Of a stretch of 5,260 bases of DNA, positions 1 through 5,260 are shown piece by piece. Below the pieces are notes generated by a model. The model had not been told where the DNA came from, made no database searches, and saw only the letters and a program-made list of their open reading frames with translations. The DNA comes from a virus (taxonomy: Duplodnaviria > Heunggongvirae > Uroviricota > Caudoviricetes). Both the position numbers and the translations under genes were made by a program. The stretch covers positions 1 to 5,260 of IMG/VR virus record IMGVR_UViG_2778261360_000016. One strand, 5' to 3'. Position 1 is the first letter of the stretch. The number at the start of each line of letters is the position of its first letter.

Positions 1-420
1 ATGGATGAATGCCGCCGCGAACCATTCAAAACCAGCGAAGGCAGAGAAATTACGGGGCCGTGGCAGTCGCATCCCAAACGGATGTTACGGCATAAAGCCA
101 TGATTCAGTGTGCCCGGCTGGCCTTCGGATTTGCGGGTATCTATGACAAGGATGAAGCCGAGCGCATTGTCGAAAATACCGCATACACTGCAGAACGTCA
201 GCCGGAACGCGACATCACTCCGGTTAACGATGAAACCATGCAGGAGATTAACACTCTGCTGATTGCCCTGGACAAAACATGGGATGACGACTTATTGCCG
301 CTCTGTTCCCAGATATTTCGCCGCGACATTCGCGCATCGTCGGAACTGACACAGGCCGAAGCAGTGAAAGCTCTTGGATTCCTGAAACAGAAAGCCTCTG
401 AACAGAAGGTGGCTGCATGA
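1..420 (+). CDS. bet: Bet (Red-beta) single-strand annealing recombinase, 3' portion only; the gene starts upstream of the window
   Basis: The frame is open from base 1 and the translation [11 protein letters not shown]...[22 protein letters not shown] matches the C-terminal part of phage lambda Bet as I recall it, so the ATG at 1 is an internal Met. The TGA at 418-420 overlaps the exo ATG at 417-419 (ATGA). Confidence 0.93.
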
Positions 421-1097
421 CACCGGACATTATCCTGCAGCGTACCGGGATCGACGTGAGAGCTGTCGAACAGGGGGATCATGCGTGGCACAAATTACGG
501 CTCGGCGTCATCACCGCTTCAGAAGTTCACAATGTGATAGCAAAACCCCGCTCCGGAAAGAAATGGCCTGACATGAAAATGTCCTACTTCCACACCCTGC
601 TTGCCGAGGTTTGCACCGGTGTGGCTCCGGAAGTTAACGCTAAGGCGCTGGCCTGGGGAAAACAGTACGAGAACGACGCCAGAGCCCTCTTTGAGTTCAC
701 TTCCGGCGTGAATGTTACTGAATCCCCGATCATCTATCGCGACGAAAGTATGCGCACCGCCTGCTCTCCCGATGGTTTATGCAGTGACGGCAATGGCCTT
801 GAGCTGAAATGCCCGTTTACCTCCCGGGATTTCATGAAGTTCCGGCTCGGTGGTTTCGAGGCCATAAAGTCGGCTTACATGGCCCAGGTGCAGTACAGCA
901 TGTGGGTGACGCGAAAAGATGCCTGGTACTTTTCCAACTATGACCCGCGTATGAAGCGTGAAGGCCTGCATTATGTCGTGGTTGAGCGGGATGAAAAGTA
1001 CATGGCGAGTTTTGACGAGATGGTGCCGGAGTTCATCGAAAAAATGGACGAGGCACTGGCTGAAATTGGTTTTGTATTTGGGGAGCAATGGCGATGA
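417..1097 (+). CDS. exo: Lambda-type 5'-3' exonuclease (Red-alpha, Exo), 226 aa
   Basis: The 226-aa translation [21 protein letters not shown]...[15 protein letters not shown] is near-identical to lambda exonuclease as I recall it. An AAGGTGG Shine-Dalgarno-like motif sits at 406-412, and the start overlaps the bet stop. Confidence 0.96.
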
Positions 1098-1276
1098 AGC
1101 ATCCTCACGATAATATCCGCGTAGGCACGATCACTTTCGTCTACTCCGTTACAAAGCGAGGCTGGGTATTTCCCGGCCTTTCTGTTATCCGAAATCCCCT
1201 GAATGCACAGCGGCTGGCTGAGGAGATAAATAATAAACGGGGGGCTGTATGCACAAAGCATCTCCCGTTGAGTTAA
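1094..1276 (+). CDS. Lambda orf60a-like small protein of the exo-xis region, 60 aa
   Basis: ATG at 1094 overlaps the exo stop (ATGA) and is preceded by GGGGAG at 1080-1085 with 8-nt spacing. From this start the product is exactly 60 aa ([11 protein letters not shown]...CTKHLPLS), matching the name and position of lambda orf60a. The upstream in-frame ATG at 1088 used by the ORF track lies only 2 nt from that motif. Confidence 0.75.
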
Positions 1277-1440
1277 GAACGAGTATCGAGATGGCACATA
1301 GCCTCGCTCAAATTGGAGTCAGGTTTGTGCCAATACCAGTAGAAACAGACGAAGAATTTCATACGTTAGCCGCATCCCTTTCACAAAAGCTGGAAATGAT
1401 GGTGGCGAAAGCAGAAGCAGATGAGAGAGACCCGGTATGA
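1249..1440 (+). CDS. Lambda orf63-like small protein of the exo-xis region, 63 aa
   Basis: The 63-aa ORF overlaps the orf60a 3' end by 28 nt and sits in the position of lambda orf63. A G-run at 1239-1244 precedes the ATG. An internal ATG at 1291 (MAHSLAQIGV...) is an alternative start. Confidence 0.72.
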   Translation: MHKASPVELRTSIEMAHSLAQIGVRFVPIPVETDEEFHTLAASLSQKLEMMVAKAEADERDPV

Positions 1441-1732
1441 CAACCACGGAATGCATTTTTCTGGCTGCGGGCTTCATATTCTGTGTGCTTATGCTTGCCG
1501 ACATGGGACTTGTTCAATGACACCTCAGCAAGAAAACGCCCTTCGCAGCATTGCCCGTCAGGCTAATTCTGAAATCAAAAAAGCCAGACAGCAGTTTCCG
1601 GATAAAAACGTCAATGACATTTGTCGTAGCGTACTGAAGAAGCACCGCGAAACGGTAACGCTGATGGGATTCACACCGACTCACTTAAGTCTGGCAATCG
1701 GCATGTTAAACGGCGTCTTTAAGGAACGGTGA
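1421..1732 (+). CDS. Lambda orf61-like protein, extended form (103 aa from ATG 1421; alternative start ATG 1517 gives 71 aa)
   Basis: The ORF starts 20 nt inside the orf63 3' end, as lambda orf61 does relative to orf63, and codon 62 is AAA rather than a stop. The C-terminal 71 aa (MTPQQENALRSIARQANSEIKK...) look like a genuine small basic protein. The N-terminal 32 aa are Cys/His-rich and no clear Shine-Dalgarno precedes 1421, so the true start is uncertain. Confidence 0.6.
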   Translation: MRETRYDNHGMHFSGCGLHILCAYACRHGTCSMTPQQENALRSIARQANSEIKKARQQFPDKNVNDICRSVLKKHRETVTLMGFTPTHLSLAIGMLNGVFKER

Positions 1733-1752
1733 ACATGAAAAGCAAAATCATC

Positions 1753-1775
1753 AGGGAGCTACAGGCTCCTTTTTT
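1753..1775 (+). terminator. Candidate rho-independent terminator or attenuator in the orf61-orf73 intergenic region
   Basis: A 5-bp stem GGAGC (1755-1759) / GCTCC (1765-1769) with a 5-nt loop, extendable by A-U and G-U pairs, is followed by T6 at 1770-1775. The stem is short, so this is probably only a partial terminator. Confidence 0.35.
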
Positions 1776-1830
1776 ATTATTCGCATTCACCCTCAAGCGT
1801 ATTAACCAACCATTCAGGGATTAATGGAAG

Positions 1831-2052
1831 ATGGCAGACATCATTGATTCAGCATCAGAAATTGAAGAATTACAGCGCAACACAGCAATAAAAATGCGCC
1901 GCCTGAACCACCAGGCTATATCTGCCACTCATTGTTGTGAGTGTGGCGATCCCATAGATGAGCGAAGACGCCTGGCCGTTCAGGGTTGTCGGACTTGTGC
2001 AAGTTGCCAGGAAGTTCTGGAGCTTATCAGTAAACAGAGAGGTTCGAAGTGA
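1831..2052 (+). CDS. DksA/TraR-family C4 zinc-finger protein (lambda orf73-like), 73 aa
   Basis: The 73-aa product carries the CxxC-(17)-CxxC motif CCECGDPIDERRRLAVQGCRTCASC typical of TraR/DksA C4 zinc fingers. Its length and position match lambda orf73. The stop overlaps the GTG start of the next gene (GTGA). Confidence 0.85.
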   Translation: MADIIDSASEIEELQRNTAIKMRRLNHQAISATHCCECGDPIDERRRLAVQGCRTCASCQEVLELISKQRGSK

Positions 2053-2420
2053 GCGAAATTAACTCTCAGGCACTGCGTGAAGCGGCAGAGCAGGCAATGC
2101 ATGACAACTGGGGATTTGACGCGGACCTTTTCCATGAGCTGGTAACACCATCGATTGTGCTGGCACTGCTGGATGAACGGGAAAGAAACCAGCAATACGT
2201 CAAACGCCGCGACAAGGAGAACGAGGATATTGCACTAACGGTAGGGAGGCTGCGCGTTGAGCTGGAAGGCAAACACAGGCGCATTACTGAGCTGACAATG
2301 TGGATTAAGCGACTGAGTTCCTCTCTCAAAAACGCAAAACCAGACAGCAAGTTGCCGGATGACGCAATGATCTGGCTAAATAATGAAGGGCTTACCAGTA
2401 TAGAGGATATTTTACGATGA
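2049..2420 (+). CDS. Ea22-like (ead/Ea22 family) N-terminal-domain protein, 123 aa, GTG start
   Basis: GTG at 2049 is preceded by GAGG at 2039-2042 with 6-nt spacing. The N-terminus MSEINSQALREAAEQAMHDNWGFDADLFHELVTPSIVLALLDERERNQQY resembles the conserved N-terminal region of lambda Ea22-family proteins as I recall it. The central region is charged and looks coiled-coil-like. Confidence 0.7.
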   Translation: MSEINSQALREAAEQAMHDNWGFDADLFHELVTPSIVLALLDERERNQQYVKRRDKENEDIALTVGRLRVELEGKHRRITELTMWIKRLSSSLKNAKPDSKLPDDAMIWLNNEGLTSIEDILR

Positions 2421-3064
2421 GCACTTTTACCATGGAATGGCTACAAAATACGATTACCAGTATTGAGTCAGCACGAGATGAAATGCCATTCGGACTCGAT
2501 AACGATCAAGCACACATGCTTACAGCATTTAAAATCGCTCTCGCCTCACTGGAACGCGAGCGGGTTCGCCACGAGCATGCCAAATGGTCTGACTCCACAT
2601 TTGGCTGCGTTGGCCCCATTGGTCCACTGAAACACCTCTCAAAAGAGGCTCTGGAAGCCGCAGCCGAACCTGACGATCTCAGCGAGTGGGCTGATATGCA
2701 GTTCCTGTTGTGGGATGCACAGCGCCGTGCCGGTATCAGTGATGCTGAAATTACCGCTGCTATGGAAAATAAATTGAAGATCAACATGGAGCGTCAGTGG
2801 CCTGAACCAAAAGATGGTGAGCCTCGTTTGCACATTAAAGAACCCGGCAACTCTCCGGTAACTCCGGATGGTTGGATAAGCTGTAGTGAGCTAATGCCAG
2901 ATGATGGTCAGCACGTAATTATTTTATGTGATGGCGCATTCGTTCTTTATGCGCAATATCGAGACGGAGAGTTTTTCGATATTGTCCGCAATGGTGATGA
3001 ATTTTTCGAAACACAGAGTCGCAATGTAACCGACTGGATGCAACTACCAGAACCTCCTCTTTGA
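2417..3064 (+). CDS. Two-domain prophage protein: MazG-like nucleotide pyrophosphohydrolase-type N-terminal domain (DUF550-like) plus C-terminal DUF551-like domain, 215 aa
   Basis: ATG at 2417 overlaps the upstream stop (ATGA). The N-terminal half has a MazG-like acidic helix pattern (EALEAAAEPDDLSEWADMQFLLWDAQRRAGISDAEI). The C-terminal WISCSELMPDDGQHVIILCDG...YAQYRDGEFF...WMQLPEPP matches the DUF551 signature common in enterobacterial prophage proteins. Domain names are from memory, not a search. Confidence 0.78.
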   Translation: MSTFTMEWLQNTITSIESARDEMPFGLDNDQAHMLTAFKIALASLERERVRHEHAKWSDSTFGCVGPIGPLKHLSKEALEAAAEPDDLSEWADMQFLLWDAQRRAGISDAEITAAMENKLKINMERQWPEPKDGEPRLHIKEPGNSPVTPDGWISCSELMPDDGQHVIILCDGAFVLYAQYRDGEFFDIVRNGDEFFETQSRNVTDWMQLPEPPL

Positions 3065-3160
3065 TAGCTAAGCTTATACATATCTTTTACATCAGCAATC
3101 TATTGTTAATCTCCAATCAATGTTACGTTGTCATCTCTCTCATGCTTTGGAGGTAGTGAT

Positions 3161-3340
3161 ATGTCTTGTCCAAAATGCGGTTCTGGAAATATTGCAAAAG
3201 AAAAAACAATGCGTGGATGGTCTGATGATTATGTGTGCTGCGATTGCGGATACAACGACTCTAAAGACGTATTTGGAGAGCGTGGTAAAAACGATTTTGT
3301 CAAAATTAATAAAGAACGCGAAGGCAACGAAAAAAGCTAA
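3161..3340 (+). CDS. Small zinc-ribbon protein, 59 aa (CPKCG...CCDCG), in an AT-rich island
   Basis: ATG at 3161 is preceded by GGAGG at 3149-3153 with 7-nt spacing. Two Cys pairs (CPKC and CCDC) are spaced like a zinc ribbon, and the C-terminus is Lys/Glu-rich. The ORF-track start at 3128 is a TTG with no ribosome-binding site, so the ATG is preferred. Confidence 0.55.
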   Translation: MSCPKCGSGNIAKEKTMRGWSDDYVCCDCGYNDSKDVFGERGKNDFVKINKEREGNEKS

Positions 3341-3405
3341 TTTATTTATTCATATATGAAAACAATGTAACCAATATTCGAATTGAAGAACTGAAAGAAC
3401 ACCAA

Positions 3406-3427
3406 GCCGCCTGATGGCGGTTTTTTT
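3406..3427 (+). terminator. Rho-independent terminator candidate downstream of the zinc-ribbon gene
   Basis: A GC-rich stem CCGCC (3407-3411) / GGCGG (3416-3420) with loop TGAT is followed by T7 at 3421-3427. The T-run is on the + strand, so it is oriented for + strand transcription. Confidence 0.6.
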
Positions 3428-3441
3428 ATTGGAGACAAGAA

Positions 3442-3786
3442 ATGTCAGATTTGGCTATGAAGGTTTTGAAATGGCAATCGACTGGCGATGTTGGCATCAG
3501 TAGCGCAACTCTTGCCTCAATCGCATGTGGACTGAAAAAGAATATCTATGGTCATCACTTCGGCGCTCCCCATGACGCAGCCGATTTCAGACGATGCGTT
3601 GCACTTGTTGAGCAGATTCCAGAAATCAGAGATTCATTCAACAAGGTTGCAAAGCGCGTTCCGGCATTCAAAGGAATCCTCAACGAATGGGATTCTCTCG
3701 TTGCTCTGTTGAAGTCTGAAATGAAGATACACGGAAACAAAGCACCAGAGACTTACAGAAGAATTAGCGAGTTACGCAAGGACTAA
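3442..3786 (+). CDS. Hypothetical protein, 114 aa, function unknown, in the lower-GC accessory region between the ea genes and xis
   Basis: The ATG at 3442 is preceded by GGAGA at 3431-3435 with 6-nt spacing and follows the terminator T-run within 15 nt. The ORF is clean, with a soluble, helical-looking composition. I do not recognise the sequence. Confidence 0.65.
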   Translation: MSDLAMKVLKWQSTGDVGISSATLASIACGLKKNIYGHHFGAPHDAADFRRCVALVEQIPEIRDSFNKVAKRVPAFKGILNEWDSLVALLKSEMKIHGNKAPETYRRISELRKD

Positions 3787-3875
3787 CCACAGCCTCACAC
3801 TCAATGAGGCCTGCCAGCTTCTCAAGATATCCAGACCTACAGCAATCATGTCAATCCAATAAATGGAGACTCCAA

Positions 3876-4223
3876 GTGGAAGAAGAAATCTTCACTCGTG
3901 AAGAGGCAGCATCGTATCTGAAGGTAGACAAAGGCACTATCACGCAGTGGATACGAAGTGGACGACTTCAGGCCGCAAAGATAAATCCAGATAAACCTAA
4001 AAGCCCATATCGCATTTGCAAGTCAGACTGCATTGCGGCGCTTAAGTCTGTGAGACACAATAGCGCGGTGAATGCGGTTGATGTGCAGGAGGTTAAAGCA
4101 TGTCAATCAAACTGCGCGGTGGCACATGGCACTGCGATTTCGTCGCGCCAGATGGATCAAGAGTTAGACGCTCTCTTGAAACATCGGACAAAAGGCAAGC
4201 GCAAGAACTTCACGATCGTCTGA
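3876..4223 (+). CDS. xis: Excisionase (Xis), HTH excisionase-family DNA-binding protein, probably P22-type, about 115 aa from GTG 3876
   Basis: The motif EEEIFTREEAASYLKVDKGTITQWIRSGRLQAAKI is typical of excisionase/MerR-like helix-turn-helix domains, and the gene lies immediately upstream of int. GTG at 3876 has GGAG at 3865-3868 with 7-nt spacing, whereas the in-frame ATG at 3804 (139 aa) has no ribosome-binding site. The 3' end overlaps int by 124 nt. Confidence 0.7.
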   Translation: MEEEIFTREEAASYLKVDKGTITQWIRSGRLQAAKINPDKPKSPYRICKSDCIAALKSVRHNSAVNAVDVQEVKACQSNCAVAHGTAISSRQMDQELDALLKHRTKGKRKNFTIV

Positions 4224-5260
4224 AAGCAGAGGCGTGGAGAGTAAAAAATCTCGGGGAATCGCCGAAAAAGCTATTCAAGGAAGCCTGCATACGGTGGCTG
4301 CGTGAGAAATCGGATAAGAAGTCCATTGATGATGACAAGAGCATTATATCGTTCTGGATGTTGCACTTCAGAGAAACCATTCTCTCTGACATAACAACAG
4401 AAAAAATAATGGAGGCGGTAGACGGGATGGAAAACCGCCGCCATCGCCTGAACTGGGAGATGAGCCGGGACAGGTGTTTGCGGCTTGGCAAGCCAGTGCC
4501 GGAGTATAAACCAAAGCTGGCAAGCAAAGGAACGAAGACGCGGCATCTGGCAATACTTCGCGCTATTCTCAATATGGCTGTTGAATGGGGATGGCTTGAC
4601 AGGGCGCCCAAAATATCAACACCACGCGTTAAGAATGGACGCATTAGATGGCTTACAGAAGAGGAATCGAAGCGCCTGTTTGCAGAAATAGCTCCTCATT
4701 TCTTCCCTGTTGTCATGTTTGCAATCACGACAGGCCTTCGCCGTTCCAACGTTACAGACCTTGAGTGGTCACAGGTCGATCTGGATAAGAAAATGGCATG
4801 GATGCCCCCTGATGAAACAAAAGCTGGCAATGCGATCGGAGTTCCTCTTAACGAAACCGCATGCCAGATATTAAGAAAACAGCAGGGACTCCATAAGAGA
4901 TGGGTATTTGTCCACACCAAACCTGCCTACCGAAGCGACGGAACAAAAACAGCAGCGGTAAGGAAGATGAGAACCGACAGCAACAAGGCATGGAAGGGAG
5001 CGTTAAAGCGGGCAGGCATTAGCAACTTCCGCTTCCATGACCTGAGGCATACCTGGGCAAGCTGGCTGGTTCAGTCCGGTGTCTCTCTTCTTGCACTTAA
5101 AGAGATGGGAGGATGGGAAACTCTCGAAATGGTTCAAAGATACGCCCACCTTTCAGCCGGGCATCTCACTGAGCACGCGAGCAAAATCGATGCGATTATA
5201 AATCGCAATGGCACAAATACGGCACAAGAGGAAAACGTGGTTTACTTAAATGTGAGATAA
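4100..5260 (+). CDS. int: Tyrosine-recombinase phage integrase (P22/Sf6-type Int), 386 aa
   Basis: AGGAGG at 4087-4092 lies 7 nt before the ATG at 4100. Catalytic signatures are present: TGLRRSN (Arg box), HDLRHTWASWLVQSG (H-x-x-R), GGWETLEMVQRYAHL (Tyr nucleophile). The N-terminus MSIKLRGGTWHCDFVAPDG...KRQAQELHDRLKAEAWRV resembles P22 Int as I recall it. The TAA at 5258-5260 is the last codon of the window. Confidence 0.95.
   Translation: MSIKLRGGTWHCDFVAPDGSRVRRSLETSDKRQAQELHDRLKAEAWRVKNLGESPKKLFKEACIRWLREKSDKKSIDDDKSIISFWMLHFRETILSDITTEKIMEAVDGMENRRHRLNWEMSRDRCLRLGKPVPEYKPKLASKGTKTRHLAILRAILNMAVEWGWLDRAPKISTPRVKNGRIRWLTEEESKRLFAEIAPHFFPVVMFAITTGLRRSNVTDLEWSQVDLDKKMAWMPPDETKAGNAIGVPLNETACQILRKQQGLHKRWVFVHTKPAYRSDGTKTAAVRKMRTDSNKAWKGALKRAGISNFRFHDLRHTWASWLVQSGVSLLALKEMGGWETLEMVQRYAHLSAGHLTEHASKIDAIINRNGTNTAQEENVVYLNVR

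Follow-up and report, generated by a model that had tools for sequence, protein, structure and literature searches.

A stretch of 5,260 nucleotides from a Caudoviricetes virus (IMG/VR record IMGVR_UViG_2778261360_000016, positions 1 to 5,260; the window, below) contains the exo-xis early genes of a lambdoid prophage, all on the + strand and in the order of the leftward (pL) operon. Between exo and xis, on the same strand, lies an open reading frame (ORF) of 114 codons at 3442-3786 (+). We find this ORF to be a genuine, selectively maintained and non-essential accessory gene of the exo-xis region, as the interval between exo and xis is called in the literature on lambda and Shiga toxin (Stx) phages (PMC8614690, PMC4195576). 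It is another copy of a catalogued hypothetical gene, a 'known unknown', and not a new kind of system. Its product belongs to a family that extends far beyond lambdoid phages, for which we tentatively propose a role in early lytic growth.

The ORF is intact, and its translation is identical to the one obtained in a reading made earlier from the letters alone (the sequence-only reading). That reading also gave the gene its own ribosome-binding site, which is present as a GGAG 7 nt before the ATG and is conserved in phages HK022, mEp213 and Huey. The ratio of nonsynonymous to synonymous substitution rates (dN/dS) is 0.04-0.10 between the window copy and those of HK022, mEp213 and Huey, and 0.02-0.17 across all pairs of these copies. 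The protein is therefore under purifying selection, and the codon-level conservation in relatives by which the sequence-only reading proposed to judge the gene upholds it as coding. The copy in the P22-like phage SPN9CC shares 62% protein identity with that of the window, synonymous sites between the two being saturated. Clusters of identical or near-identical full-length proteins number 1,623, 641 and 545 members. With a GC content of 0.455 the ORF does lie below the Red genes (exo 0.532, bet 0.524), as had been remarked, but it is unremarkable for the exo-xis region, whose remaining genes lie at 0.46-0.50; the lowest value in the window, 0.383, belongs to a small zinc-ribbon gene.

Although the sequence-only reading called the gene unrecognised, it is already annotated as hypothetical in HK022 (gp32), mEp213, Huey and RefSeq E. 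coli genomes. It corresponds to HK022 gp32 (AUM59808; formerly HK022p30; annotated 'N15 early protein homolog'), mEp213_026 and Huey CDS0021, with the HK022 and mEp213 proteins 97-99% identical to that of the window, and the same protein occurs in Stx1a and Stx2 phages. It matches PHROG 1229, a phage protein family without assigned function, over its whole length (E=1.1e-51, 174.8 bits, residues 1-114 on profile positions 1-113 of 116). The earlier statement that no family could be assigned holds for Pfam, NCBIfam and PADLOC, and for function, but not for PHROG. HK022 gp32 and mEp213_026 have the length of the window protein and the same slot between the orf55 terminator and xis; HK022 differs from the window in carrying orf55 upstream, where the window has the zinc-ribbon gene, and a lambda-type xis-int module, where that of the window is of SfX/P22 type.

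The slot had been described as a variable one for accessory genes, and the distribution of the gene confirms this: it is present or absent between otherwise related phages, being absent from lambda and present in HK022, mEp213, Huey and Stx phages. Among 5,426 complete E. coli genomes, 462 (~8.5%) carry at least 80% of a 535-nt query around the ORF. In HK446 and HK75, whose xis-int module is that of the window, all but the final ~48 nt of the ORF is gone, and this remnant runs into an ea22-like gene at its 5' end (MSKIDYQALRE...); such a deletion scar shows that the gene is dispensable. The features of the window, and the scar, are as follows.

1-420 (+): bet, partial
417-1097 (+): exo
1088-1276 (+): orf60a / DUF1317
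1249-1440 (+): orf63 / DUF1382
1421-1732 (+): PHROG 303 gene
1831-2052 (+): orf73 / TraR-like zinc finger, 73 aa, DksA/TraR-type, PF01258, PHROG 54
2049-2420 (+): ea22-like gene
2417-3064 (+): dATP/dGTP pyrophosphohydrolase plus DUF551 in a single ORF, two genes upstream of the 114-aa ORF
3128/3161-3340 (+): small zinc-ribbon gene, PHROG 2945
3367-3403 (+): orf55 3' coding remnant, left mosaic boundary; with the hairpin that follows, the conserved ~60-bp element
3404-3427 (+): intrinsic terminator hairpin and T7 (stem-loop 3404-3423, T run ending at 3427)
3431-3434 (+): ribosome-binding site GGAG
3442-3786 (+): the 114-aa ORF, ATG start
3787-3840 (+): downstream spacer that travels with the ORF, right mosaic boundary
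3876-4223 (+): xis, HTH_17 excisionase of P22/SfX type, downstream limit of the slot
4100 to window end (+): int, tyrosine integrase
HK446 1770-1934 and HK75 1770-1950 (retrieved stretches): deletion scar, equivalent to window 3738-3875

The terminator that the sequence-only reading placed within 15 nt of the gene is indeed there, its T-tract ending 14 nt before the ATG. It consists of a hairpin with an 8-bp stem (5 G-C pairs) and a 4-nt loop, followed by seven T; RNA folding gives z = -2.07, and a terminator scan of 2900-4300 returned 5 terminator-like sites against 1.3 expected. In an alignment that includes the E. coli orf55-xis junction, the hairpin and T-tract are common to lambda, HK022, mEp213, Huey and the window, and the orf55 stop codon falls in the hairpin loop. 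After the T-tract, lambda continues into the xis ribosome-binding site, whereas HK022, mEp213, Huey and the window continue into ATTGGAGACAAGAAATG, the start of the 114-aa gene; the ORF occupies the same position relative to the conserved terminator as xis does in lambda. Exactly this sequence is listed as the predicted terminator t5 of lambda by Bloch et al. (2014, Table 4; PMC4195576). The query was matched by 2,693 of the 5,426 complete E. coli genomes, most of them only at query 27-91 (window 3367-3431), so roughly half of these genomes have the ~60-bp orf55-end/terminator element, whether or not the ORF is present. Given this distribution, the terminator is not specific to the 114-aa gene; it is a conserved 3'-end element of lambda orf55. 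In E. coli strain F5656C1 the element overlaps the end of the 55-aa orf55 (lambdap35), directly before a lambda-type xis. In the window the body of orf55 is replaced by the zinc-ribbon gene, and its last ~48 nt survive (3367-3414).

On the other side of the gene, homology to HK022, whose xis-int module differs, stops near 3838-3840, and megablast alignments to HK022, Huey and Stx1a phages extend no further than query 741 (window 3840). The mobile unit is therefore a self-contained cassette of about 3431-3840, made up of ribosome-binding site, ORF and a spacer of ~55 nt. This corrects the anatomy of the slot: the terminator belongs to the conserved lambda orf55/xis junction, and that junction defines the exact insertion point of accessory cassettes at the end of the pL operon. 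In HK022 a second hairpin and T-tract (GCCGCATCAATGCGGC TTTTTCTTGC) lies between gp32 and xis (3476-3500 of the retrieved stretch). The sequence beyond it is the one found after the orf55 terminator in lambda, so in HK022 a terminator-like unit flanks the cassette on each side. No terminator was found in 3787-3875 of the window, where the second HK022 hairpin is missing. Two other identities for the conserved terminator were set aside. It is not the lambda small RNA LPR1/PreS, which maps to tL2a, between ea10 and ral, and an Rfam match to isrK on 3367-3427 was dismissed as a generic terminator signal: isrK, STnc420 and Phe_leader, which are unrelated and contain terminators, all score ~18 bits on the element, far below their gathering scores.

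A scan of both strands of 2900-4300 found no sigma-70-like promoter (0 against 2.2 expected), though this was a consensus scan that atypical promoters may escape, and the 14 nt between terminator and ATG leave no room for one. Since no promoter was found and the same terminator precedes xis in lambda itself, we infer that the gene is expressed as a delayed-early gene from antiterminated pL transcripts that read through the terminator, and that it would be silent in a repressed prophage. Expression by read-through or antitermination, as the sequence-only reading had expected, is therefore supported.

A profile search against Pfam, which that reading had recommended, gave no match; NCBIfam gave none either, and none of the defence models in PADLOC-DB 2.0 was matched at E<=0.1. 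Among 5.8 billion proteins, a word-indexed search recovered only unnamed relatives from Enterobacteriaceae. An exhaustive profile search recovered 2,836 cluster representatives (50% identity) at E<=1e-3, 635 of them at E<=1e-10, most being stand-alone proteins of 105-140 aa, and a second profile-based search of an annotated database returned only the name 'hypothetical protein'. By tblastn the family is found in 279 phage records, including 152 Vibrio phages. Other carriers are P22-like Salmonella phages, a Yersinia phage, Arthrobacter and Clavibacter phages, Mu-like phages of Haemophilus (SuMu) and Mannheimia, and phage Solent (Sashavirus), which, as a 9NA-like phage, is presumably virulent. 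The family also occurs in 134 plasmid records, mostly Pseudomonas megaplasmids, in genomes of at least eight phyla (Proteobacteria, Bacteroidota, Chloroflexi, Acidobacteria, Actinobacteria and Patescibacteria among them) and in one contig of a Methanoperedens metagenome-assembled genome.

Across 88 representatives at ~30% identity, P43, D45, D48, R51, C52 and W83 are invariant, and all are present in the window protein; W11, G18, S20, S21, L55 and P60 reach 90% conservation or more. The family motif can be written W..G..G.SS.T ... P.D..D[FL].RC..L....P, followed by a tryptophan (W83), and further charged or polar positions are conserved at E61, R63, D84, E93 and Y105. The isoelectric point (pI) is 9.4 for the window protein, with a family median of 5.9 and a range of 4.5-10; overall charge is therefore not conserved, and the value of 9.4 is not a family trait. 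Two members are tandemly duplicated (P0067 and P0197), and in P0197 the Ser-Ser and Cys residues survive in the second copy but not in the first. Only one Pfam-annotated fusion is present in the family, to a CCA-adding enzyme (P0170), and longer members carry recurrent N- and C-terminal extensions without Pfam or PHROG annotation; one, P0105, has a MazG-looking extension. Pfam domains are otherwise recorded only on chimeric E. coli forms bearing fragments of neighbouring genes (Ea22, pyrophosphohydrolase, ERF), and the databases hold many chimeric E. coli proteins in which half of the ORF is fused to a fragment of Ea22, pyrophosphohydrolase, Erf or Kil. An apparent methyltransferase fusion in Stx phage phi315 was rejected, being a truncated remnant with a stop after ~67 codons that lies beside a methylase module.

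The sequence-only reading had also called for structure prediction with fold comparison. AlphaFold2, run with a 13-sequence alignment, predicts seven helices (pLDDT 93.6, pTM 0.87), and the product is thus predicted to be a compact, soluble, all-helical cytoplasmic protein with no membrane segment. Comparison with Foldseek against 350,542 chains of the Protein Data Bank (PDB) yielded no structural relative (best E=3.2, TM 0.29), PDB sequence and profile searches gave no match, and a search of a viral structure library returned only uncharacterised members of the family. In the model, S20 and S21 lie at the start of helix 2, and P43-x-D45-x-x-D48-x-x-R51-C52 at the start of helix 3. As to DNA binding by a helix-turn-helix (HTH), no HTH profile or fold match was found, and the family is not consistently basic.

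The genomic context of the family was surveyed in 114 loci fetched by the motif PxDPSDFxRC, 112 of which contain a family ORF, taking four genes on either side with crude gene calls. No constant partner gene was found, the largest neighbour cluster occurring in 10 of 112 loci; the commonest Pfam family among immediate neighbours, Mu Gp11, occurs in 4 of 94, and none is enriched. Immediate neighbours are co-directional in 169 of 222 cases (76%) over the 112 loci. Neighbouring genes encode RdgC, SSB, HU, Mu Gp11, GemA, Mor, DUF3164, C5 and N6 methylases and HNH proteins, as well as Lar, DUF551, Ead/Ea22, dUTPase_2, YfbR-like proteins and a CI-type repressor. These are typical early-region genes, and within such early DNA-metabolism regions the family member always stands alone. 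MazG-like or nucleotide-hydrolase genes (YfbR-like, dUTPase_2) are found repeatedly, if loosely, in the vicinity of the family. Pairing with the zinc-ribbon gene, which the sequence-only reading had suggested as a variable for experiment, finds no support, because HK022 and mEp213 carry orf55 at that place and small CxxC..CxxC proteins are no commoner at position -1 (3 of 111 loci) than at other positions. The zinc-ribbon gene itself is common to phages Huey, HZ41 and Stx1a_EH2115 and is not found in HK022 or mEp213; it has sub-threshold Pfam matches to Lar restriction-alleviation and HVO_2753-like zinc binders.

One copy of the family, of 118 aa, lies on the Pseudomonas putida megaplasmid pSY153-MDR (5995-10627, retrieved stretch). 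It is directly followed by the gene of an orphan site-specific DNA methyltransferase, then by a DUF6685 gene and one for an N-6 DNA methylase, and an integrase and a regulator of HTH type adjoin the region. The family gene is carried by more than 100 related megaplasmids, and the locus may be an anti-restriction or phage-derived island. A systematic association with methyltransferases, which this copy prompted us to consider, was not supported by the neighbour counts: methylase families (N6_N4_Mtase, DNA_methylase) were matched by 1 of the 94 neighbours upstream and by 2 of the 95 downstream, and 6 of 112 loci have a C5-methylase cluster no more than four genes from the family ORF on either side.

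With less than even confidence, we favour a role in host takeover or counter-defence during early lytic growth. Antiterminated pL transcripts would read through the orf55 terminator, and the 114-aa protein would be made as a delayed-early product. It would probably act as a homodimer, since tandem-duplicated relatives exist. The conserved polar cluster (S20/S21, the P43-C52 motif, W11 and W83) would probably bind or modify a target shared by widely different bacteria; such a target would therefore not be a lineage-specific host protein, and may instead belong to universal core machinery or be linked to nucleic acids or nucleotides. In support of this, the family is found in temperate phages, in virulent-type phages and on megaplasmids, across many phyla. 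An early lytic role is more likely than a defence expressed from the prophage, and anti-defence, one of the functions put forward by the sequence-only reading, is possible. The proteins Ral, Lar, Abc2, Gam and the ArdA type are, like the ORF product, small, stand-alone, early and dispensable; related loci hold Abc2, Lar-like proteins, methyltransferases and Gam near family members, and megaplasmid copies lie beside orphan methyltransferases. However, no sequence or fold similarity between these proteins and the ORF product was found, so the resemblance is one of context.

Several observations weigh against such a role. The protein has no PADLOC match and no sequence or fold similarity to anti-defence proteins of solved structure, and no annotated homologue links it to an activity. 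Any early accessory gene would be expected among early genes, so this context favours no particular function. Several conserved polar residues are placed at predicted helix N-termini, where they could serve only as structural caps. The consensus promoter scan may miss a weak or activator-dependent promoter, and the suggested dimer is based on two tandem proteins only. In a stronger version, the ORF would be the E. coli member of a structurally new pan-phage family whose invariant Ser-Ser/Asp/Asp/Arg/Cys residues form an undescribed catalytic or ligand site acting on a universal target in counter-immunity or takeover. We regard this as possible but doubtful. If true, the protein would found a new class of counter-defence or host-takeover factors in phages, and its universal target might be a nucleotide signal, a modification of nucleic acids or the core machinery of DNA. 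The window alone adds no new kind of element, and its value lies in the family as an experimental target. Thousands of clusters, distant phyla, a short invariant motif, a confident fold without solved relative and no Pfam entry make up its appeal. Families of this profile have repeatedly proved to be counter-defence or host-takeover factors. As the gene sits in genetically tractable phages (HK022, mEp213, P22-like), a knockout and expression test would be cheap.

The same conservation could reflect a small enzyme or small-molecule binder of new activity, with a catalytic or ligand pocket built from the invariant Ser-Ser, Asp, Asp, Arg and Cys. Such a pocket might, for instance, serve to modify nucleotides or nucleic acids or to sequester a signalling nucleotide; in biological role this overlaps the takeover or counter-defence proposal. 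Six residues fully invariant and six more at least 90% conserved among the 88 representatives are consistent with a pocket, as are the further conserved E61, R63, D84, E93 and Y105 in proteins whose overall charge is not conserved (pI 4.5-10), and the degenerate copy in P0197 resembles pseudo-dimer enzymes and binders. The neighbourhood has a loose flavour of nucleotide metabolism (dATP/dGTP pyrophosphohydrolase, YfbR-like, dUTPase_2, the CCA-adding enzyme fusion), but each association occurs in only 1-2 of ~95 loci. The protein resembles no enzyme in fold or sequence, 114 residues is small for an enzyme, and the conserved polar residues coincide with helix caps, so that we consider this reading unlikely. 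We also think it quite unlikely that the product modulates the lysis-lysogeny decision or host transcription and physiology in the manner of Ea22, Orf60a, Orf61, Orf63, Orf73/TraR and Ea8.5. The idea draws on position: the ORF is in the exo-xis region and would be transcribed from pL with its genes, the window carries orf60a, orf63, orf73 and ea22-like genes, and exo-xis genes together change how lambda and phi24B lysogenise and are induced (PMC3824215, PMC8614690, PMC4195576). The lambda genes orf60a, orf63, orf61, orf73, ea22, ea8.5 and orf55 share the operon and region of the ORF, four of them (orf60a, orf63, orf73 and ea22) having homologues in the window, and like it they are non-essential, early, pL-transcribed and encode small proteins of mostly unknown mechanism. 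However, the studied phages (lambda, phi24B, 933W) lack this gene, whose family, unlike the lambda exo-xis genes, reaches far beyond lambdoid phages. Relatives occur on megaplasmids and in Solent, which, if virulent as we presume, has no lysogeny decision to modulate, and the protein shows no profile similarity to the slot analogues Ea8.5 of lambda and EaC of P22, nor any sequence similarity to Ea8.5.

Of the functions proposed by the sequence-only reading, defence or superinfection exclusion expressed from the prophage, as by a moron, is the least favoured, and we judge it very improbable. Like a moron, the gene is a discrete, variably present cassette between conserved genes, in an accessory slot adjoining xis and int, and the HK022 cassette is followed by a hairpin and T-tract in a gene-plus-terminator layout. 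Morons, however, have their own promoter and are expressed in the lysogen, whereas here no promoter-like site was detected, the upstream terminator is only 14 nt from the ATG, and the ORF is on the strand and in the operon of pL genes that are repressed in lysogens. This expected silence in the repressed prophage counts against defence or exclusion. The protein also has no PADLOC match and is predicted to be soluble with no membrane segment, and the family is found in the virulent-type Solent and in early operons of Mu-like phages. An accessory factor for excision or integration, such as a recombination directionality factor or cofactor, is extremely improbable. In lambdoid phages the gene lies immediately upstream of xis or int, and at 114 aa and pI 9.4 its product is superficially like the 116-aa P22 Xis. 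Identity with a P22-type Xis, suggested by size, charge and position, was nevertheless rejected: BLASTP against P22 Xis gives E=19, whereas the neighbouring gene at 3876-4223 is a P22-type xis whose product is 42% identical to P22 Xis. Nor did the ORF product match the HTH_17 domain of P22/SfX-type excisionases, in keeping with the absence of any Pfam or NCBIfam match. At least three types of int/xis module are found with the ORF (lambda-type in HK022, SfX-type in the window, P22-like in SPN9CC), and outside lambdoid phages it does not adjoin integrases, so a role in recombination is unlikely; the family is, moreover, not consistently basic.

Among the neighbouring genes, the ORF at 2417-3064 combines a PF04447 domain (E=4.5e-42) with a C-terminal DUF551 (E=1.5e-17). 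Lambda orf73, to which the gene at 1831-2052 corresponds, is reported to reprogram host RNA polymerase (PMC9239242). The window xis was called as a 139-aa ORF from ATG 3804, on which PHROG 2907 excisionase is matched from residue 25; it also matches HTH_17 and TIGR01764. From GTG 3876 it encodes a 115-aa product, and the match to P22 Xis has E=3e-31. Because the profile starts at residue 25, the mEp213 annotation uses the equivalent GTG and a GGAG lies 6 nt upstream, GTG 3876 is most likely the true start, and the 139-aa call appears too long. The xis/int overlap in the window is 124 nt, the same as in P22.

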